A DNA stretch of 45,727 nucleotides, from the NCBI GenBank assembly GCA_964470205.1, contig CAYYBA010000001.1, positions 1-45,727 of the forward strand. Reading direction: 5' to 3'. The notes beneath the pieces are model-generated. The model saw nothing but the letters and a program-made list of their open reading frames with translations. It did not search any database and had not been told where the DNA came from. This DNA comes from an uncultured Gammaproteobacteria bacterium. GTDB lineage: Bacteria; Cyanobacteriota; Vampirovibrionia; Gastranaerophilales; Gastranaerophilaceae. This document shows, piece by piece, positions 2,107-41,045 of the stretch. The first letter of the stretch is position 1; every line of letters starts with the position of its first letter. Position numbers and translations under genes: made by a program.

Positions 2107-2820
2107 TTACCAGCTTACATTTTTGTGCAAATAATCCATATTGTCTTTTGCTATAACCCAGGCAGTGCAGGAATGGCCTGAATAGGCGCTGTCATTTGTT
2201 CTGCTGCATCTGGTTGATAAATCTACACCAATACCGCTAGGGGCTATTGAACCGTTTTTTTGTATTACAAACATAAAAATATCTCTGCCAACTTGGTTCG
2301 GTTTTTTGTCACCATTTATATCAACATCTACATTTCCGCAAACACCTGTTGCACAATTACTTTGTGTGATAACAATAAAAAAAGACATCCCGTCTGCAAG
2401 CCTTGCTTTTGCATATTCACTGTTGTTTTCAGGGTTTGTCCAAATAGTGTTACCGTTCAAATTTTTATAATTGCCGTTCCAAAAACATCCTTTACCCTTG
2501 CCGCATCTTTTTGTAATTTTTAAATACGGTGCTAAAATATCTATAATTTTATCCGCACTTTCTCCACTCCGGACTGTTCCCCAATCCCAGGTGTCAACAG
2601 ACCCGTTTCGAATTTCAGCCAATTTAAAAGCTTGCGATATTTGTGAATAGAATTTTTTAATCGAACTTACTGTTTGGCGCTCCTGATAGTTTCTTACGAC
2701 CGTGGGGATTGTGAGCGCTGCAACAACACCGATTATGGCTAAAGTAATTAATACTTCAGCAAGCGTAAAACCCTTTTTATTTGCGCATGCAGCATTAAAT
2801 TTTGCAATTAATTCTTCCAC
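2107..2820 (-). CDS. prepilin-type N-terminal cleavage/methylation domain protein (type IV pilin-like), class i (...NMDYLHKNVSW end)
   Basis: KKG|FTLAEVLITLAIIGVVAALTIPTV prepilin signature. Shared DINGDKKPNQVGRDIFMF and CTAWVI motifs. Confidence 0.85.
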   Translation of the reverse strand: MEELIAKFNAACANKKGFTLAEVLITLAIIGVVAALTIPTVVRNYQERQTVSSIKKFYSQISQAFKLAEIRNGSVDTWDWGTVRSGESADKIIDILAPYLKITKRCGKGKGCFWNGNYKNLNGNTIWTNPENNSEYAKARLADGMSFFIVITQSNCATGVCGNVDVDINGDKKPNQVGRDIFMFVIQKNGSIAPSGIGVDLSTRCSRTNDSAYSGHSCTAWVIAKDNMDYLHKNVSW

Positions 2821-2964
2821 TTCATTTTCCGATTTTCTATATTAAATAAAGATTTTTACTCAATTATACCATATTTAATATATAAATTCAATGTTTAAAA
2901 CAGAAAAAATTAAAAATTATATATTAAATACAGTTATAAATATTATAGAGTTTAATTATTCTTG

Positions 2965-3306
2965 ATGATAAAGAAACGGAGCAAAATGGATTTAAAGAAA
3001 AAATTCGGTACAAGATTAAAACTTATAAGAAAAAGAAATCTGTTAACGCAAGAAAAACTTGCGGAATTAACAGGTATTGACTCTAAACATTTAAGCCACA
3101 TCGAAACGGGGCAAAGTTTCCCCTCTGCTAAATTAATTGAAAATTTTGCGCGTGTGCTTGAAGTTAATTCGGAAGACTTTTTTATAAATTCCGAAAGCAA
3201 AAACCGCGATATTCTGGCACAAGAAATTGTGAGTTTGCTTAAACAAATAAACGACAGGGATTTAAAAATAGTCCACAATATGGTTTTGGATATGATAAAT
3301 ACTTAA
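2965..3306 (+). CDS. XRE (Cro/C1) family HTH transcriptional regulator
   Basis: LTQEKLAELTGIDSKHLSHIETGQSFPS helix-turn-helix. Start ambiguous: TTG 2962, ATG 2965, or ATG 2986 with GGAG upstream. Divergent from pilin-like 2107-2820. Confidence 0.8.
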   Translation: MIKKRSKMDLKKKFGTRLKLIRKRNLLTQEKLAELTGIDSKHLSHIETGQSFPSAKLIENFARVLEVNSEDFFINSESKNRDILAQEIVSLLKQINDRDLKIVHNMVLDMINT

Positions 3307-4826
3307 ACCTGTTTTTTAATCATACTTTCGCCTGTCATCTCCTGCGGCTTTTCAATGCCCAGGATTTCAAGAACTGTTGGCGCAATGTCGCTCAAGGCTC
3401 CTGATTCTTTTAAATCATACTTTTTGCTGTCTATAATAATAAAAGGTACGGGGTTTGTGGTATGTGCGGTATGCGGCTGGTGCGTGTTTTTATCAACCAT
3501 ATCTTCAGCGTTCCCATGGTCTGCCGTTAAAATCATCACAACACCCATCTCAAGCACTTTTGCGGCAATTTTACCTATGCAGTTATCAACCGTTTCAACT
3601 GCCTTAATTGCAGCGTCCATTATACCCGTGTGCCCTACCATATCAGGGTTTGCAAAGTTCACCAAAATAAAACCGTATTTAGGATCATCAAGCGCTTTCA
3701 AAACATTTTCACAAACATCCCCTGCGCTCATTTCGGGCTGCAAATCATAAGTTTTAACTTTAGGAGAAGGTACAAGCACGCGTGTTTCTGTCGGGTAAGG
3801 CACTTCCAAGCCTCTGTTAAAGAAAAACGTAACATGAGCGAATTCATCGGTTTCGGCTGTTCTGAACTGCAAAACATTGTTTTTATCCAGCACCCCGCCC
3901 AAAATATTTTTCATAGCCTCAGGCTTAAATGCTACGCTAAGCGGCAGTTTTTCATCGTATTGCGTCATACAAACGTAAAAAAGATTTTTTAAAACTTTTT
4001 TGCGCTCAAAACCTGTAAAATCCGCTGTTGTAAGTGCATTTGTAATTTCGCGGGCTCTATCCGGTCTGTAATTAAAGAAAATAACAGAATCGTTATCTTC
4101 AATTCTGCGCTTTGAAATAACCGCAGGGTCAACAAATTCATCGGTAATACCTTGCTTATAAGAATTTTCAACAGCTTCAATTGCACTGTTTGCGGCATTC
4201 CCTTCGCCCAGAACAAGGCAATTGTACGCCCTCTCAACTCTATCCCAGCGTTTATCCCTGTCCATTGCCCAAAAACGTCCCATAACAGAAGCAATTTTTG
4301 GCAAATGATACTGTGCCAGCGTTTTTTCAATTTCTTCTAAATATTGAATTGCAGATTTCGGTGGCGTATCGCGCCCGTCTAAAAACGCGTGGACATAAAC
4401 ATCACAAAGCCCGTTGTCTGCCGCTATCTTAATAAGTGCTTGCAAATGCGGATAAACACTGTGCACGCCGCCGTCTGACACAAGCCCGAACAGGTGCAGG
4501 GCGCTTTTATTTTCTTTGACATGATTTATAGCGGCTAAAAATTCTTCGTTTTTGAAGAAATCACCGTCTTCAATTGATTTATTTATTCTTGAAAGTTCCT
4601 GATATACAATTCTTCCGGCACCTATGTTTAAATGCCCCACTTCGGAATTGCCCATCTGCCCTTTTGGTAAACCGACATTGCTGCCTTCAGCATGGATTTG
4701 CGCGTATGACATATTTTTTACAAAACTGTCGTAATTGGGGGTATTTGCTTTTGCAATAGCATTATATTCTCTCTCAGAGCTTATGCCCCAGCCATCCAAT
4801 ATACATAACAAAACTCTTTTTTGCAT
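3303..4826 (-). CDS. gpmI: 2,3-bisphosphoglycerate-independent phosphoglycerate mutase
   Basis: 507 aa. MGNSEVGHLNIGAGR and TADHGNAE motifs, full-length iPGM architecture. Confidence 0.95.
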   Translation of the reverse strand: MQKRVLLCILDGWGISSEREYNAIAKANTPNYDSFVKNMSYAQIHAEGSNVGLPKGQMGNSEVGHLNIGAGRIVYQELSRINKSIEDGDFFKNEEFLAAINHVKENKSALHLFGLVSDGGVHSVYPHLQALIKIAADNGLCDVYVHAFLDGRDTPPKSAIQYLEEIEKTLAQYHLPKIASVMGRFWAMDRDKRWDRVERAYNCLVLGEGNAANSAIEAVENSYKQGITDEFVDPAVISKRRIEDNDSVIFFNYRPDRAREITNALTTADFTGFERKKVLKNLFYVCMTQYDEKLPLSVAFKPEAMKNILGGVLDKNNVLQFRTAETDEFAHVTFFFNRGLEVPYPTETRVLVPSPKVKTYDLQPEMSAGDVCENVLKALDDPKYGFILVNFANPDMVGHTGIMDAAIKAVETVDNCIGKIAAKVLEMGVVMILTADHGNAEDMVDKNTHQPHTAHTTNPVPFIIIDSKKYDLKESGALSDIAPTVLEILGIEKPQEMTGESMIKKQV

Positions 4827-4881
4827 TATTAATGTCCTCTCTTTGGTTCTAATATATCATAAAAGATGTTATAATTACACT

Positions 4882-5337
4882 ATGTTTAAAGATTATTTTG
4901 TGGTTATTAAAAAATATTTTTACCGCTATATTCTGCAAAGAAACTATTTTAGAGTTGGGAAATGTAATATGTGCGGCAGATGCTGCGAAAAAATTTACGT
5001 AAAACACGGCAAATGTGTTTTGCAGGATGAAGAACATTTTTATAAATTGCGCAACATGCACAAATTCTATGAAGATTTGCACTTGGCGGGCAAAGACGAA
5101 AACGGGCTTATTTTTGTATGCAAAAATTTGGATAAAGAAACAAGAAAGTGCAAAGTGCACGCCAGCCGTGCCAAAATATGCAGGGATTATCCGCAGGAAG
5201 AAATTTTTAAAATGGGAGGCGATATGGCGCGAAGCTGCGGATATAAATTTGTGCCGATTTTTTCTTTTGAAAGCGTAATGGAGCGTGTGAAAAAATCAAA
5301 AAGCTGCATAATGTCTGTAAATGAAGAAGAGGTATTT
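4882..5337 (+). CDS. YkgJ/UPF0153 (FliB-family) CxxCxxCC cysteine-cluster domain with no stop codon of its own, reading in frame into the next pilin-like ORF
   Basis: CNMCGRCCEKIY plus CKNLDKETRKCKVHASRAKICRDYP match the YkgJ pattern. ATG at 4882. The track ORF 4735-6060 is uninterrupted. Confidence 0.65.
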
Positions 5338-6060
5338 ATGAAAAAAGGTTTTACCCTCGCCGAAGTGCTGATAACGCTTGCAATAATAGGTGTTGTGGCA
5401 GCGCTTACAATCCCAACCGTTGTACAAAATTACCAAAAAACCCAAACCGTAGTGCAGCTAAAAAAGACATATACCAGCTTAAATCAAGCTATGCAAATGG
5501 CTGTTGTAAATTACGGAAATATGGAAAATTGGAGTGATGTTTTTACCGCAGACAGAAGAAGAGATGACACGGAATTGAGAGATATTATAACAAAATATTT
5601 TATTCCGTATATGAAAGTTTCAAAAGCTTGTGCAGCGGGCGAAATGCAGCAGTGTTGGGCAGACGGATTATTGATTTATACAATAGATGGTAATTCTTTT
5701 AACACAAATTCTATAGGCGGTGGTAAGGCAAGTTTCAAGCTGGCAGACGGAACAACGGTTATGCTGATAACATCCTATGTCGGCGTTAATGACTACACTA
5801 TTAATTTATTTGTTGATTTAAACGGCTATAAAAAACCGAACAAATTGGGTAAAGATATTTTTACTTTCCTTCCGGATAGAAAAAGAAATGCAATAATTCT
5901 TATGTGCGAACAATGTACCAGGAGCAGTATAATCAATAATTCTAACGGTTCAGGATGGTATTGCAAAAAAGGAACTGGCGGCACATTGGCCGGCGGAAGT
6001 TGCGGAGCTTTAATTCAAAAAGACGGTTGGGAGATTAAAGGTGATTACCCGTGGAATTAA
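5338..6060 (+). CDS. prepilin-type pilin-like protein, class ii (...GWEIKGDYPWN end), possible internal start
   Basis: MKKG|FTLAEVLITLAIIGVVAALTIPTV. GAAGAGG lies about 7 nt upstream of ATG 5338. DLNGYKKPNKLGKDIFTF motif. Confidence 0.8.
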   Translation: MKKGFTLAEVLITLAIIGVVAALTIPTVVQNYQKTQTVVQLKKTYTSLNQAMQMAVVNYGNMENWSDVFTADRRRDDTELRDIITKYFIPYMKVSKACAAGEMQQCWADGLLIYTIDGNSFNTNSIGGGKASFKLADGTTVMLITSYVGVNDYTINLFVDLNGYKKPNKLGKDIFTFLPDRKRNAIILMCEQCTRSSIINNSNGSGWYCKKGTGGTLAGGSCGALIQKDGWEIKGDYPWN

Positions 6061-6064
6061 AGTC

Positions 6065-6283
6065 ATGTCAAATTGTGAAGAAGAAGTTTATAGAAAAATA
6101 GGCGCAAATATTAAAAAATATAGAAATTTGCGCGGTATAACGCAGGAAAAATTGTCTGAAATGTTAGATGCTAATTCCAAATTTGTAGGGCATATTGAGC
6201 GCTTTGAAAGGTATGTAGGGTTAAAAAAGCTTATTAAGATAGCTAATATTTTGGATATAGAAATAAAAAATTTGTTTGAATAG
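6065..6283 (+). CDS. XRE family HTH transcriptional regulator (small)
   Basis: ITQEKLSEMLDANSKFVGHIERFER HTH. ATG 6065 lies 4 nt after the pilin-like stop. Confidence 0.75.
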   Translation: MSNCEEEVYRKIGANIKKYRNLRGITQEKLSEMLDANSKFVGHIERFERYVGLKKLIKIANILDIEIKNLFE

Positions 6284-6284
6284 C

Positions 6285-6310
6285 AAAAAAGCGGGGAAAC
6301 CCGCTTTTTA
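6285..6310. terminator. bidirectional intrinsic terminator
   Basis: AAAAAAGCGGG-GAAA-CCCGCTTTTT: GC stem flanked by an A-run and a T-run. It serves the + strand HTH gene and the - strand rplL transcript. Confidence 0.8.
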
Positions 6311-6479
6311 ATAGTTTAATTAATTGCTTCCGTGACTCCGCTTGCATGGCGCTGTCCTCTTGATTTTCAAGCGTTTTGTCATGCTGAACTTGTTTCAGCA
6401 TCTGTTGAAAATCAAGCCTCCATTTCAACTTGCCCATTGGGGCAACTTTCAACGGAGTCCTTGCACCGGCTGCCGCGTT
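6311..6479 (-). other. GC-rich structured element in the rplL 3' UTR (three-stem fold), upstream of the terminator
   Basis: Stems seen directly: 6334-6340/6453-6459 (7 bp), 6430-6435/6440-6445 (6 bp), 6359-6370/6405-6416 (12 bp) enclosing 6381-6388/6394-6401 (8 bp). Starts GCGGCAGCCG 3 nt after the rplL stop. Confidence 0.45.
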
Positions 6480-6854
6480 CTACTTCACTTCCACTGTTCC
6501 GCCGGCTTCTTCGATTTTCTTTTTAATTTCGTCGGCTTCTTCTCTTTTGATGTTTTCTTTAACCGGTTTCGGAGCAGCATCTACCAAGTCTTTAGCTTCT
6601 TTCAAGCCAAGACCCGTGATTTCTCTTACAACCTTCAAAACAGCTATTTTGTTAGCGCCGGCTGTTGTTAAAGTTACCGTAACTTCAGTCGGGGCTTCTT
6701 CTGCCGCTGCCGCTGCTGCGGGAGCCGCTGCAACTGCTGCAACCGGAGCTGCTGCAGATACGCCGAATTTTTCTTCCATGGCTTTTACAAGTTCTGCTGC
6801 TTCAATTAATGTTAATTTTTCAATTGATCCTAAAATAGTTTCTACGTTACTCAT
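6480..6854 (-). CDS. rplL: 50S ribosomal protein L7/L12
   Basis: 124 aa. Ala-rich hinge [22 protein letters not shown]-terminal [11 protein letters not shown]...[10 protein letters not shown]. Confidence 0.97.
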
Positions 6855-7389: not shown

Positions 7390-7538
7390 AATTGGGAATC
7401 TCCTTTCTTTTTGTTTGGCAAAGCCTTATAACAAAAAAGTTTTGCCACAATACGCGCAAAACAATAACAAAAAGTTTTCTTGCTACCTCGGCCGGAAATT
7501 AAGGTTTTGTTGAACCACCGACTGTCTGCGGTATTTGT
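7390..7538 (-). promoter_or_regulatory. long 5' leader of rplJ-rplL, candidate L10-type autoregulatory leader
   Basis: About 150 nt between the predicted promoter and the AAAGGAG RBS. GC-rich core CCGCAGACAGTCGGTGG...CCGGCCGAGG and a GGCAAA/TTTGCC hairpin. Assignment to the L10 leader class is inferred from position only. Confidence 0.4.
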
Positions 7539-7544
7539 GAAAAG

Positions 7545-7573
7545 AGTATAATATAAAGTCTTAATAAAGTCAA
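7545..7573 (-). promoter_or_regulatory. sigma70-type promoter for rplJL
   Basis: On the minus strand: TTGACT (7573-7568), 17-nt spacer, TATACT (7550-7545). Confidence 0.55.
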
Positions 7574-8727: not shown

Positions 8728-9372
8728 TTACCACGGGTAATCGTCTTTAATCTCCCAACCTTCTCTTAAAATTTTATCCGTGCAACATGACTTAGAATCA
8801 CTTTTGCAGGCTGCATCTACCTGGCTTTTAGTCTTTGTATGGCAATAAGGCAAAACCCCTTTATTGTCATAGAGAAATTCAAAGACATCTCTTCCTGCTA
8901 TGTTTGGTCCTTTTGCACCGTTTATATCAGCCAAAATATATGAAACCTTGTTTTCTATACCCCCAAAAGCCGTACGAATTAAAATGAAAGAGCCGTCCGT
9001 TAAAAGAAATTGCACACCCATAATTGATTCCATGCCTGCAATTACCGTTTGCTGCCATGGGGTTGGGGTTTTATATCCGCAGTAGTTTGGTGTCGAACAC
9101 ATCTGTTGAACCTTTAAATAAGGCTTCCAATAAGTTTCAAAAAATTTTTGAGGAGTGTTTAAAAGTTCGCTATCCCATGTAGAATAAGCACCATTTTCAG
9201 CTTCAGACATGTTTAATGCCTGATTCAAGATAGAATAATTTTTCTTTAATTTTACTACTGTTTGCTGTTTTTGATAATTGCGCACAACGGTTGGAATTGT
9301 AAGCGCTGCAACAACCCCTATTATTGCAAGGGTAATTAAAACTTCCGCCAAGGTAAAACCTGCCTTTTTCAT
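8728..9372 (-). CDS. prepilin-type pilin-like protein, class ii (...GWEIKDDYPW end)
   Basis: MKKAG|FTLAEVLITLAIIGVVAALTIPTV. DINGAKGPNIAGRDVFEF motif. Confidence 0.85.
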   Translation of the reverse strand: MKKAGFTLAEVLITLAIIGVVAALTIPTVVRNYQKQQTVVKLKKNYSILNQALNMSEAENGAYSTWDSELLNTPQKFFETYWKPYLKVQQMCSTPNYCGYKTPTPWQQTVIAGMESIMGVQFLLTDGSFILIRTAFGGIENKVSYILADINGAKGPNIAGRDVFEFLYDNKGVLPYCHTKTKSQVDAACKSDSKSCCTDKILREGWEIKDDYPW

Positions 9373-9422: not shown

Positions 9423-9478
9423 CGAATTATAATATACAATACCAAGCACCTTTTTGTCAAATAAAATATAATTGCCTT

Positions 9479-9703
9479 ATGGAAATAAATATAAGAGCAA
9501 AAATCAAATACCTGCTTTCATTAAAGGGTTTGACAATTACAAAACTTGCCGAGCTTATGAGCGAGAAAACAGGCGAAAAATATACCTTTCAGCGCCTTTC
9601 GCACAAATTAAGACTTAACAAATTGACACTTAAAGAAGCTTATATTATAGCAGATCTAATAGGATATGATTTAGAATTTGTCGAAAAGGAACAAAAGCCT
9701 TAA
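9479..9703 (+). CDS. small HTH DNA-binding protein (XRE-like)
   Basis: 74 aa. LTITKLAELMSEKTGEKYTFQRLSHKL HTH-like segment. Divergent from pilin-like 8728-9372. Confidence 0.6.
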   Translation: MEINIRAKIKYLLSLKGLTITKLAELMSEKTGEKYTFQRLSHKLRLNKLTLKEAYIIADLIGYDLEFVEKEQKP

Positions 9704-29244: not shown

Positions 29245-29907
29245 ATGAAAAAAATTGCCGCGAAAAAAGGTTTTACCCTCGCTGAAGTTCTTATAACATT
29301 AGCCATAATCGGTGTTGTTGCGGCATTAACAATACCTGGCGTTATTCGCAATTACAGAGAAGTGCAATATAAAGCACAAGTCAAAAAAGCATTTTCAACA
29401 CTGCAGCAGGCTGTAAATAAAACAAGTTATGATTTTGGCACAACACCTCGCTGTTATATCGATTACAGCGGCGGTGGCGATAGCCAAAACGTTTATTACA
29501 ACACGGAATGCCCGTCTTTTTTTAAAACGTTAAGAGATAATATGAAAGTTGCAAAATACTGCAGCGGCAACGCTTACGCAAACGGATGTATACCAGATTA
29601 TAACCCTTCTCCTACAAGCTCTGCAACAGTTAATGCTTTTTGTACCGAATGGTTAAAAAAATACGACCCTACCTGGGTTTTAACAGATGGCACAATAATA
29701 ATAAGCTATGCCGGTACACACCCTTTAATGGCTTTTGACATTAACGGCAAAAAAGGCCCCAATAAATTCGGATATGATTTATTTGCGCTAAGCCTTACAA
29801 AAGATAACAACAAGGGTGTGGTTATAACAAACCTTAGAATAGGTGGAGAGCCTCTTGAAGAAGGGGGAAAATCTTTGTTTGATACACTTAAATGGGCTTA
29901 TGAATAA
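29245..29907 (+). CDS. prepilin-type pilin-like protein, divergent class iii
   Basis: MKKIAAKKG|FTLAEVLITLAIIGVVAALTIPGV. DINGKKGPNKFGYDLFAL motif. Different C-terminus (LKWAYE). Confidence 0.85.
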   Translation: MKKIAAKKGFTLAEVLITLAIIGVVAALTIPGVIRNYREVQYKAQVKKAFSTLQQAVNKTSYDFGTTPRCYIDYSGGGDSQNVYYNTECPSFFKTLRDNMKVAKYCSGNAYANGCIPDYNPSPTSSATVNAFCTEWLKKYDPTWVLTDGTIIISYAGTHPLMAFDINGKKGPNKFGYDLFALSLTKDNNKGVVITNLRIGGEPLEEGGKSLFDTLKWAYE

Positions 29908-29995: not shown

Positions 29996-30739
29996 ATGGA
30001 GGAAATTATTGCATTTACTGACGCCCCCGTAGATAAAAAAGGTTTTACGCTTGCAGAAGTATTGATAACTCTTGCAATAATAGGCATTGTGGCAGCGCTT
30101 ACCGTGCCTACGGTTATAAGAAATTATCAAGAGCGCCAAACAGTAACAGCCTTAAAGAAATTTTACACGGAAATAAGTCAAGCGTATGCAAGAGCGCAGG
30201 TGGGTAATGCCACACCCGACACCTGGAATTGGGGGGCAGGTGCCGACGGCACAAGTGCCGATAAAATTATAGATATTTTAGCGCCGTATTTGAAAATTAC
30301 AAAAAGATGCGGGAATGCCGGCGGGTGCTTTTCGCCTGACACTTATAAAACTTTAAACAAAAATATTAGTTGGCACGGACCAAACTTTGGACAATATGCA
30401 AGTGCACAATTTGCAAACGGATTAGCGTTTTGGATTTATACACAAGGTAGTGGCTGTACAACAAACAGGGGCAGCACAAAGGGGCTTGGCTCTATTTGTG
30501 GTCATATTGGGGTTGATTTAAATGGTTATAAAAAACCAAACCAATTGGGACACGACACTTTTTATTTTTACTTAACAAAATATAATATTATTCCAATGGG
30601 TACAAAAGATGAAACTATGTATACTATATCAAACTATTGTAAAATTTCAACTCAAACGGATAACAATGGTTTTGCATGTACTGCCTGGGTTATTCAAAAA
30701 GGCAACATGGATTATTTAAAACAAGATGTTAACTGGTAA
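29996..30739 (+). CDS. prepilin-type pilin-like protein, class i
   Basis: DKKG|FTLAEVLITLAIIGIVAALTVPTV. AAAGGAG RBS. DLNGYKKPNQLGHDTFYF, CTAWVIQKGNMDYLKQDVNW. Confidence 0.85.
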   Translation: MEEIIAFTDAPVDKKGFTLAEVLITLAIIGIVAALTVPTVIRNYQERQTVTALKKFYTEISQAYARAQVGNATPDTWNWGAGADGTSADKIIDILAPYLKITKRCGNAGGCFSPDTYKTLNKNISWHGPNFGQYASAQFANGLAFWIYTQGSGCTTNRGSTKGLGSICGHIGVDLNGYKKPNQLGHDTFYFYLTKYNIIPMGTKDETMYTISNYCKISTQTDNNGFACTAWVIQKGNMDYLKQDVNW

Positions 30740-37420: not shown

Positions 37421-37522
37421 TAATTAATACCTTTTTATTTTATTATAATTTTCATATAACTTAATAAAAATGGTATTTAATATTTTAAATTACTAATAAT
37501 AATGATATTATAAATTGTAATT

Positions 37523-38269
37523 ATGATTTTGGATGTTGTAAAAATGGTTGATAGAAGAATTAATAAAGGGTTTACGCTCGCCGAAGTGCTTATAACTCTT
37601 GCGATAATTGGTGTTGTGGCAGCCCTTACAATTCCAACGGTTATAAGAAACTATCAGGAACGCGAAACAGTTAGCGCATTAAAGAAATTTTATTCTCAAA
37701 TATCTCAAGCTTTTAAAATGGCAGAAATTGAAAATGGTCCCATTGAAACTTGGAATTGGGTAGGATTGGAAAGTCCTGCCGGTGCGAATAACGTTTTAAA
37801 CATAATTTCTCCTTATCTTAAAATTACAAAAAATTGTAAATCAGGAGACGGATGCTTTGCTAAAAAATACAAAAATCTCCCCGGTGGAGATTGGTTCACC
37901 GTAAGTGTAAATGACGTTTCAACATATGCAAAAGCACGATTGGCGGATGGAATGTCTTTTTGGATTATTTCAGCTTCCGATAATTGCACATTTACAAGTG
38001 GCAGCGGCAAAAGTCTAAATGCTATTTGCGGCTCTTTGGGAGTTGATTTAAATGGTGATAAAAAACCAAATACCTGGGGCAAGGATACATTTTATTTTCG
38101 TATAACAAAATATGGGTTTTTCCCTATGGGTGCAAAGGATGATACAATGTTTCCGTTATCTACCCATTGCAGAATGTCAAGCCAAGATCAGCGTAACGGC
38201 TATGCATGCGGTGCATGGATTTTAGGAAAAGATAATATGGATTATTTAAAGCGTGATATAAGCTGGTGA
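37523..38269 (+). CDS. prepilin-type pilin-like protein, class i
   Basis: INKG|FTLAEVLITLAIIGVVAALTIPTV. DLNGDKKPNTWGKDTFYF, NMDYLKRDISW. ATG 37544 is an alternative start. Confidence 0.85.
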   Translation: MILDVVKMVDRRINKGFTLAEVLITLAIIGVVAALTIPTVIRNYQERETVSALKKFYSQISQAFKMAEIENGPIETWNWVGLESPAGANNVLNIISPYLKITKNCKSGDGCFAKKYKNLPGGDWFTVSVNDVSTYAKARLADGMSFWIISASDNCTFTSGSGKSLNAICGSLGVDLNGDKKPNTWGKDTFYFRITKYGFFPMGAKDDTMFPLSTHCRMSSQDQRNGYACGAWILGKDNMDYLKRDISW

Positions 38270-40286: not shown

Positions 40287-41045
40287 TTACCACAAGACTT
40301 GCTTTTTAAGATAATCAAGGTTCTCTTTTGCAATAACCCAGGCTGTACAGCCTTTGCCATTGTATCCGTTTGCCTGGTTATTAATATTACAAAGAATTTC
40401 AACAGGATTACCTGTTAAATCGTCCTGTGTTCCCATTGGAATTACACCGTCTTTTTCGGTTATATAAAAGGTAAATAAATCCTTTCCGCCTTGATTTGGA
40501 AGTTTATCGCCGTTTATATCTACGTAAATGTCACCGCAAATACGGCTCAACCTGTTTGTGTTGCCCACTTTATAGCTGCACCCGCTTCTGACAGATAAAG
40601 CAAAAGAAAAGCCGTCAGCCAAGCGTGTTTTATAGTAAGTTGACGATGAGTTGAGGCTGCTGTAACTGGCCTCTGTGCCATTTAATGTTTTATAATACGG
40701 TGAAAAACACCCGGCTGAACTTCCGCAATCCTTAATAATTTTAAGATGTGAAGTGATTATTTTGCCGATAACTTCTTTGTCATCCCAATTCCAAGTTCCA
40801 ATTGGCCCATTCTCAACAGTTGCAATGTTAAAAGCCTGGGCAAGCTGGCTGTAAGCTTTTTTAACAGACGTTACAATCTGGAGCTCCTGATAATGGCGCA
40901 CAACGCTCGGTATTGTAAGTGCTGCAACAACACCTATTATAGCAAGAGTTATAAGAACTTCTGCTAAAGTAAATGCAAATAATATATTGTCACATCCGCA
41001 GGATAATTTAAAATTGTAATATTTTAGTATCCTGTTTTTTCCCAC
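40287..41045 (-). CDS. pilin-like protein, class i, with atypical leader (Ala at -1, GTG start)
   Basis: ...NILFA|FTLAEVLITLAIIGVVAALTIPSV. DINGDKLPNQGGKDLFTF, CTAWVIAKENLDYLKKQVLW. Confidence 0.75.
   Translation of the reverse strand: MGKNRILKYYNFKLSCGCDNILFAFTLAEVLITLAIIGVVAALTIPSVVRHYQELQIVTSVKKAYSQLAQAFNIATVENGPIGTWNWDDKEVIGKIITSHLKIIKDCGSSAGCFSPYYKTLNGTEASYSSLNSSSTYYKTRLADGFSFALSVRSGCSYKVGNTNRLSRICGDIYVDINGDKLPNQGGKDLFTFYITEKDGVIPMGTQDDLTGNPVEILCNINNQANGYNGKGCTAWVIAKENLDYLKKQVLW

Follow-up and report, generated by a model that had tools for sequence, protein, structure and literature searches.

The 45,727-nucleotide (nt) contig CAYYBA010000001.1, here called the window, carries a plus-strand frame of 392 codons, running from ATG 4882 to TAA 6058-6060 without an internal stop, in which a small gene of the YkgJ Cys-cluster family reads directly into a complete type IV prepilin gene. 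From orthologous loci, domain models and searches with the protein and the junction itself, we interpret this frame as an accident of one lineage at a fast-changing intergenic slot rather than a designed two-domain protein, a reading to which we give a probability of about 0.72. The ykgJ-pilin combination is of a known kind, an incidental fusion by stop loss, and it shares with such fusions the restriction to a single lineage, the separate orthologues, a linker derived from non-coding DNA and the retention of the downstream start signals. It differs from them in the protease site at the N-terminus of the downstream partner, through which it could in principle self-resolve.

We suggest the following history. 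In the Gastranaerophilales (Melainabacteria) the ancestral state would be a small stand-alone ykgJ, divergent from gpmI; in the closest relatives of the window ykgJ is convergent on rplL, and the spacer between the two is either empty or filled by a cassette of a pilin gene and an XRE-type helix-turn-helix (HTH) regulator gene. A rearrangement, whether a deletion or a cassette replacement, would have joined ykgJ, two codons short of its stop, to DNA upstream of a pilin gene, with the join falling between the -35 box and the -10 box of that gene. Some 33 nt of pilin -10 box and 5' untranslated region (5'UTR) would have been retained in this way, and since they are divisible by three and stop-free in the ykgJ frame, the ykgJ and pilin frames merge.

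The junction and the origin of the linker

The five closest relatives of the locus (L001, L002, L013, L082 and L083; 83-88% nt identity) all part from the window at the same place, with homology from the left ending at window 5302/5303 and resuming on the right at 6478-6481, the position of the rplL stop. In blastn alignments L001 1-1166 corresponds to window 4137-5302 and L013 1-1710 to window 3592-5303, and L013 2040-2206, a region starting just upstream of the L013 pilin gene, corresponds to window 5305-5471. In the four closest loci the frame meets a stop two codons after homology to the window runs out (5303/5304); the ykgJ products of relatives finish as KKSKKE-stop (P0121) or KKSKSK-stop (P0122), and the window reads KKSKS-CIMSVNEEEVF-MKKGF. 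These comparative data support a lost stop codon, one of three readings put forward in an earlier inspection of the letters without database searches (the sequence-only reading), which had also described the open frame at 4882-6060 correctly.

The linker aligns to the upstream regions of two pilin genes in these relatives, TTGACA-17-TATAAT...AAGGGGTATTTGTG in L013 and TTGACA-17-TACAAT...AGAGGTGTTTATG in L082. In the alignment with L013, the side of the relative reads TTGACA-17 nt-TATAAT GTTTATAAAAGAAAAAGGGGTATTT GTG and that of the window ...AAAAAG/CTG CATAAT GTCTGTAAATGAAGAAGAGGTATTT ATG. The linker holds a -10 box (CATAAT, 5307-5312) and the Shine-Dalgarno (SD) sequence GAGG (5329-5332), and the ancestral pilin -35 box is gone, the end of ykgJ standing in its place. 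Because the counterpart of the linker is 2 nt shorter, and so not in frame, in L082 and L083, and because every difference between the window and L013 linkers would be non-synonymous if the stretch were taken as codons, we regard it as non-coding; judged by these alignments, it evolves as non-coding DNA and is what remains of a pilin 5'UTR with its -10 box. Neither the pilin body nor the HTH gene of the window is the same as its L013 counterpart, from which it follows that more than a simple deletion took place.

A 27-nt similarity between linker positions 5322-5348 and the start of the HTH gene at 6076-6102 (NEEEVFMKKG/CEEEVYRKIG) was considered as the trace of an HTH gene. It consists of purine-rich low-complexity sequence, and this origin was set aside because the linker aligns better to the pilin 5'UTRs of L013 and L082.

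Continuity of the frame over the 11-codon linker is not statistically remarkable: at the composition of the contig (35% G+C), 11 codons are free of stops with a probability of ~0.47, which gives ~0.47 x 1/3 = ~0.16 for a 33-nt join that is both in frame and stop-free. When a join falls this near a start codon, such a result is not rare.

Table 1. Features of the fused locus, its surroundings and related loci (window positions unless a locus is named).
Feature	Position	Strand	Remarks
ykgJ part	4882..5304	+	141 codons alignable to orthologues; all eight conserved Cys kept
Linker CIMSVNEEEVF	5305..5337	+	11 codons; left over from pilin -10 box and 5'UTR
Complete prepilin gene	5338..6060	+	240 codons; leader MKKG, PF07963, TIGR02532
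Breakpoint	5303..5305		ykgJ 3' homology ends and pilin promoter/5'UTR homology starts
TATAAT box	4870..4875	+	6 nt before ykgJ ATG; putative function
gpmI (2,3-bisphosphoglycerate-independent phosphoglycerate mutase)	3303..4826	-	open reading frame (ORF); conserved divergent neighbour of ykgJ
XRE-type HTH regulator gene	6065..6283	+	PF01381 HTH_3, 31 bits; separated from the pilin stop by 4 nt
Hairpin flanked by A- and T-runs	6286..6309		-15.5 kcal/mol, z = -4.9; after ykgJ, the first structure of terminator type on the + strand
Variable spacer	6310..6479		right end of the strain-variable segment; without homology to L001
GC-richer hairpin GTCATGCTGAACTTGTTTCAGCATCT	6378-6403		once in the window, in the variable spacer before rplL; translates as CHAELVSAS
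rplL (L7/L12)	6480..6854	-	convergent; conserved right flank; 88-91% nt identity to L001 and L013
Ribosomal protein L10 leader (RF00557)	7424-7549	-	61.9 bits; upstream of rplJ-rplL; ordinary
Pilin paralogues	2107-2820(-), 5338-6060(+), 8728-9372(-), 29245-29907(+), 29996-30739(+), 37523-38269(+), 40287-41045(-)		
Extended ykgJ orthologues	L041 1001-1855; L046 2998-3855; L079 2974-3930		in relatives, outside the window

The Cys-cluster part and its orthologues

By its Pfam score and its Cys pattern, the N-terminal part belongs to the YkgJ/UPF0153 family, as the sequence-only reading had proposed. Residues 27-108 of the 392-residue product score 33 bits with PF03692 CxxCxxCC, for which Pfam sets a gathering cut-off of 23 and gives the description 'putative zinc- or iron-chelating domain'. 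Like other members, it combines CX2CX2CC with four further conserved Cys in about 140 amino acids (aa), and it differs from them in the missing stop and the run-on into the next gene, which occur in the window contig only. C28, C31, C34, C35, C80, C90, C100 and C119 are all present and invariant among 20 orthologues; every other invariant residue is kept as well, and no disabling change is seen. The part is 85-89% identical in aa sequence to P0121, P0122 and P0155, and pairwise ratios of non-synonymous to synonymous substitution rates (dN/dS) for ykgJ lie between 0.08 and 0.17, with 0.17 for the window against L013. We conclude from these comparisons that the window ykgJ is intact and appears to be under purifying selection.

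A homologue search with residues 1-152 returned 32 proteins, all of them stand-alone PF03692 proteins of 108-158 aa; the orthologues measure 134-158 aa, save three shorter partial calls of 108-113 aa, their C-terminal tails vary by about 20 residues, and one of them, P0126, is named 'YkgJ family cysteine cluster protein' by the National Center for Biotechnology Information (NCBI). At the level of loci, we scanned one genome per species, which gave 69 loci, nearly all of them titled Gastranaerophilales, Melainabacteria or Vampirovibrio. The orthologue is an ORF of 135-197 codons closed by a stop in 65 of these; among the other four, one is truncated by a contig end and three have a different C-terminal extension. 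In none of the 69 does the orthologue run into a pilin, and the order of Cys-cluster domain followed by pilin is found in none of the 68 other species loci and none of the 32 homologues. When the full-length 392-aa product was compared by phmmer with 1.84 billion cluster representatives, 15,540 hits came back, and each of the best 150 matches either residues ~6-144 alone or ~130-392 alone; any protein with both halves would have ranked above these by score. The sequence-only reading had proposed to look for the same in-frame junction in orthologous loci as a check on a functional coupling of the two parts. What these loci hold is a stop at the end of the Cys-cluster ORF (65/69), with all 32 homologues standing alone and the junction at 0/68 of the other species loci, an outcome that speaks against the coupling.

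The divergent gpmI is the conserved neighbour of ykgJ (seen at L001, L003-L009 and L082/L083), and the gene downstream varies by lineage, being rplL, a sigma-factor operon or a pterin-binding enzyme. In 67/69 species loci no pilin motif occurs in the stored flanks of up to 3 kb; of the two loci with such motifs, L028 has its own upstream on the opposite strand and L013 alone has one downstream. Only the closest lineage, then, has a downstream pilin at all, as a separate gene behind a convergent HTH gene.

One Gastranaerophilales clade (3/69 species) has a ykgJ orthologue that is itself a longer single ORF of 284-318 codons. Behind its YkgJ domain comes a segment that is rich in Lys and hydrophobic and has an AxA-like site (..GVQAHA/FNGFSD..), and then a Cys-containing domain of ~130 aa for which Pfam has no match on record. 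The architecture recurs in at least 31 clusters of proteins (263-310 aa); close relatives, L084 among them, are without the extension.

Relation to FliB and to pilin modification

The sequence-only reading had also proposed that a FliB-like enzyme is here physically coupled to its filament substrate. FliB, in which the motif CX4CX3CC (C17, C22, C26 and C27 in Salmonella) binds a [4Fe-4S] cluster, methylates flagellin lysines in an S-adenosylmethionine (SAM)-dependent reaction and modifies the filament subunit before assembly (PMC8598068). The window protein resembles it in having an N-terminal four-Cys motif of similar type and eight conserved Cys, but the spacing is C28-x2-C31-x2-C34-C35, that is CX2CX2CC, not CX4CX3CC (PMC8598068). 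Scanning NCBIfam for a FliB-type model gave no match, the only signal being a sub-threshold one to YcgN (20 bits against a cut-off of 150). The sizes differ as well, FliB having about 400 aa and the window protein about 140, and the neighbourhood of ykgJ is glycolytic and ribosomal, without a conserved link to a filament gene. On these grounds the Cys-cluster protein is not, as far as its sequence can be compared, FliB-like beyond the shared motif type, and the proposed coupling is not borne out: neither the motif, nor the models, nor the neighbour, which is gpmI rather than pilin, agrees with it.

An adaptive fusion, in which a FliB-like YkgJ would modify the pilin in cis before its ~156-residue part is removed by prepilin peptidase, is for the same reasons extremely unlikely. 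In its favour, both parts are intact, ykgJ is under apparent purifying selection, a prepilin cleavage motif lies exactly at the boundary, and a related clade joins YkgJ to a hydrophobic segment and an exported-looking domain; FliB, with its related [4Fe-4S]-binding Cys motif, does methylate a filament subunit (PMC8598068). However, ykgJ and pilin genes do not co-occur, 67/69 species loci having no pilin motif within flanks of up to 3 kb, and the conserved partner of ykgJ is gpmI. The linker stems from a UTR rather than being a conserved peptide, the pilin retains its own SD and ATG, and Cys spacing and size are unlike those of FliB, with just the sub-threshold YcgN match in NCBIfam. No other fusion is found among the top hits of the 1.84 billion representatives, and the five closest loci lack the junction.

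A two-domain architecture in one metagenome-assembled contig invites the guilt-by-fusion inference that YkgJ modifies pilins; the orthologous loci mark the fusion as a by-product of rapid pilin-cassette turnover. The gpmI partnership and the membrane-anchored extension of the related clade would be better leads to the function of YkgJ than the pilin.

Expression and fate of the fused frame

The two start sites of the frame are of different kinds. Upstream of the window ykgJ there is no SD, and a TATAAT box stands just 6 nt before the ATG, in an arrangement (gtTATAATtacacYATG) common to L001, L013 and L082 and resembled by that of L003. A box so close to the ATG suggests a leaderless or near-leaderless ykgJ mRNA. 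The frame itself stays open upstream of ATG 4882, back to TTG 4735. A GGAG, GAGG or AGGA motif occurs upstream of only 12/36 contig genes, and several others have a start of similar look to that of ykgJ (window 9462-9481 and 37505-37525). The pilin ATG at 5338 has its own SD, GAAGAGG at 5326-5332 with GAGG at 5329-5332 and a spacing of 5 nt, so that a prepilin with its own ribosome-binding site, as the sequence-only reading described it, is confirmed at the level of signals and of domain models (PF07963, TIGR02532). Between ykgJ and pilin we found no plus-strand terminator, and a scan for consensus promoters returned seven against 5.7 expected from shuffling, which is not above expectation.

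On this basis we propose that ykgJ, the pilin gene and the HTH gene would be co-transcribed as one unit ending at the hairpin 6286-6309. The pilin would be made chiefly by internal initiation from its own SD and ATG (5329-5340), as a normal MKKG/F prepilin, and ribosomes that start at ykgJ, being unable to terminate, would add a YkgJ-prepilin fusion as a by-product. The proposal of two products from one frame by internal initiation is thus plausible, the intact SD/ATG at 5338 supporting the second start. The Cys-cluster domain of a fusion product would remain cytoplasmic, its pilin helix inserting N-in/C-out, and prepilin peptidase, cutting after Gly-1 at the cytoplasmic face, may release YkgJ with a 15-residue tail and mature pilin. 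If the peptidase can split the fusion in this way, the loss of the stop would be nearly neutral and tolerated.

Counted from 4882, the leader of such a fusion has 156 residues and includes a folded domain, outside the range of about 5-30 residues of known type IV prepilin leaders; its processing is uncertain because the known leaders are far shorter. That the fusion is translated in this strain and resolved by prepilin peptidase into intact YkgJ and mature pilin is therefore, in our estimate, quite improbable. If it were so, the locus would offer a natural prepilin with a 156-residue leader holding a folded, predicted metal-binding domain, and taken with the extended clade it would hint that exported proteins are what the YkgJ proteins of this group work on, at the cytoplasmic side of the membrane. 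The locus is a ready natural substrate for examining the limits on prepilin leader length and folding.

Conversely, the fusion could be made and stay unsplit, leaving YkgJ tethered or degraded and the locus on its way to losing ykgJ function. We consider this course quite unlikely too. It is true that without a stop each translation event at ykgJ gives a fusion, and that prepilin peptidases are known only from work on short leaders. Yet none of the eight Cys or other invariant residues has been lost, and dN/dS against L013 is 0.17; orthologue C-terminal tails differ by about 20 residues; and a C-terminal membrane segment is tolerated by a whole clade.

Reliability of the junction

One alternative to the lineage-specific accident is an error in the sequence, in which a true stop right after ykgJ was opened by a 1-nt indel or a chimeric join. 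The public record annotates the 392-aa product as a single gene, and the exact protein is found on this one contig only; the exact junction words, a 27-mer searched in genome contigs and a 23-mer in metagenome contigs, gave 0 hits each. The two other frames run into stops no more than 20 nt from the junction (+1 at TAA 5309 and TAA 5318, +2 at TGA 5322), and the junction falls at a structural difference between strains. We nevertheless judge an artefact unlikely. A miscounted homopolymer in the A-runs at 5290-5302 was rejected, since L013 and L002 have these runs ahead of the junction (GAAAAAATCAAAAAG) at the same lengths as the window, and the reading frame continues unchanged across a Ser codon (AGC vs AGT). 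An error would have to hit about 6 non-homopolymer bases, and no repeat by which an assembler might be misled is common to the 3' end of ykgJ and the region upstream of the pilin. A search for repeats able to mediate a rearrangement or to misdirect assembly returned just short chance-level matches. Moreover, a restored stop would still leave the rearranged order, with the pilin gene abutting ykgJ.

Several points weigh against reading the frame as a lineage-specific accident. The rearrangement is seen in one assembly, its junction recurring in no other contig of the two collections searched by exact words, and a stop (TAA 5309 or TGA 5322) may be concealed by a 1-nt error somewhere in 5303-5310. 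Expression, internal initiation and peptidase processing rest on inference, and we know of no prepilin leader near 156 residues, those known having about 5-30. Finally, the extended clade indicates, as far as its domain order can tell, that a membrane-tethered YkgJ is not intrinsically non-functional.

The pilin part and the turnover of pilin cassettes

By its sequence features, the C-terminal part belongs, as an ordinary representative, to the Gastranaerophilales pilin/pseudopilin paralogue family of the DUF6613 type, which has thousands of homologues in Gastranaerophilales metagenomes. PF07963 N_methyl (27.5 bits vs 21.2) and TIGR02532 (30.8 bits vs a cut-off of 16.3) match residues 154-175 of the product, and DUF6613 matches below its threshold. 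From ATG 5338 the N-terminus reads MKKG/FTLAEVLITLAIIGVVAALTIP (MKKG/FTLAEVLITL), with the traits of the class III signal peptide of type IV pilins and type II secretion pseudopilins: the leader is short, basic and closed by Gly, +1 is Phe, +5 is Glu, and the hydrophobic helix has about 20 residues. Cleavage is predicted at G4/F5 (codons at 5347-5352). The family motif DGWEIKxDYPW is present, the C-terminus is DGWEIKGDYPWN, and identity to P0001 and P0002, two stand-alone pilins, is 50%. ATG 5311 (MSVNEEEVFMKKG), which would give a 13-residue leader, was rejected as the true pilin start: no SD precedes it, it falls within the -10 box, and in L082 the corresponding stretch is not in frame. Among the nine large contig ORFs scanned with Pfam, none matched a prepilin peptidase or any further component of the type IV pilus machinery.

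Across the loci compared, the ykgJ-rplL spacer occurs in three states, namely empty, HTH(-)/pilin(+) or pilin(+)/HTH(+). L001 has the order gpmI(-), ykgJ(+), rplL(-), rplJ(-), with ykgJ and rplL separated by 78 base pairs and a hairpin; the neighbour of ykgJ there matches Pfam Ribosomal_L12. L013 has ykgJ(+), XRE-HTH(-) and a pilin(+) that has a promoter of its own; a hairpin, a spacer bearing a repeat, and rplL come next. L082, L083 and L002 begin as L013 does (ykgJ, HTH(-)), the start of a pilin gene being reached in L082 and L083; how far they can be followed is limited by their contigs. Past the variable segment, homology restarts at 6481 against L001 and at 6478 against L013, and the 24-mer of the hairpin at 6286-6309 is also found after the L013 pilin gene. 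The ykgJ genes of L001 and L082 are separated by a synonymous distance (dS) of only 0.04, yet the HTH/pilin cassette after ykgJ is present only in L082. Elsewhere in the window, a pilin(-)/XRE-HTH(+) cassette at 2107-3306 is missing from L082 (540-743; 83% nt identity), in which a trypsin-like protease gene directly adjoins gpmI at the place the cassette occupies. From these differences between L001, L082 and the window we conclude that pilin/HTH cassettes turn over between close strains, and that the ykgJ-rplL spacer is, on present comparisons, one of several slots of fast cassette gain and loss. The seven pilin paralogues on the 45.7-kb contig, three of which (the fused one included) adjoin an XRE-HTH gene, fit a picture in which pilin/XRE-HTH cassettes have several hot spots in these gut Melainabacteria, this spacer being one of them.

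A second, unrelated instance of an upstream gene entering a pilin cassette is, by its sequence, P0096 (616 aa), in which an ABC-2 permease ORF reads without a stop into a pilin with its own Met (...KYKKGTEE-MKKTG/FTLAEV...), a parallel to the stop loss described here.

The leaders of the pilin paralogues on the contig are very diverse (MKKG, MKKAG, MKKIAAKKG). Two homologous leaders of 16-17 residues occur, MEEIIAFTDAPVDKKG and (GTG)EELIAKFNAACANKKG, and the copy at 40973 has Ala instead of Gly at -1 and no obvious start. Many database pilins of the same family are called with N-terminal extensions of 50-190 residues (P0016, P0018, P0040, P0043, P0046, P0055, P0068, P0079, P0082, P0087 and others). 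These extensions are translated upstream repeats with the motifs CHPELVSGS and MLKRVQHD, and several contain, in frame ahead of the real N-terminus, one or two partial extra ones (AFTLAEGATHVA...AAFTLAEVLITL); such extended pilins could be gene-calling artefacts or remnants of pilin-cassette recombination. The GC-richer hairpin at 6378-6403 is of the same type as these translated repeats.

The L10 leader listed in Table 1 is the sole match of an Rfam scan. Several of the compared loci carry record titles that do not fit their ykgJ: the closest relative L013/L011 (CAZYYK01, GCA_964651135.1), L017 and L075 are titled 'uncultured Gammaproteobacteria bacterium' and L078 'Muribaculaceae', and the ykgJ of each groups with Gastranaerophilales/Melainabacteria genomes. 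Such titles are probably taxonomic mislabels of metagenome-assembled genomes.

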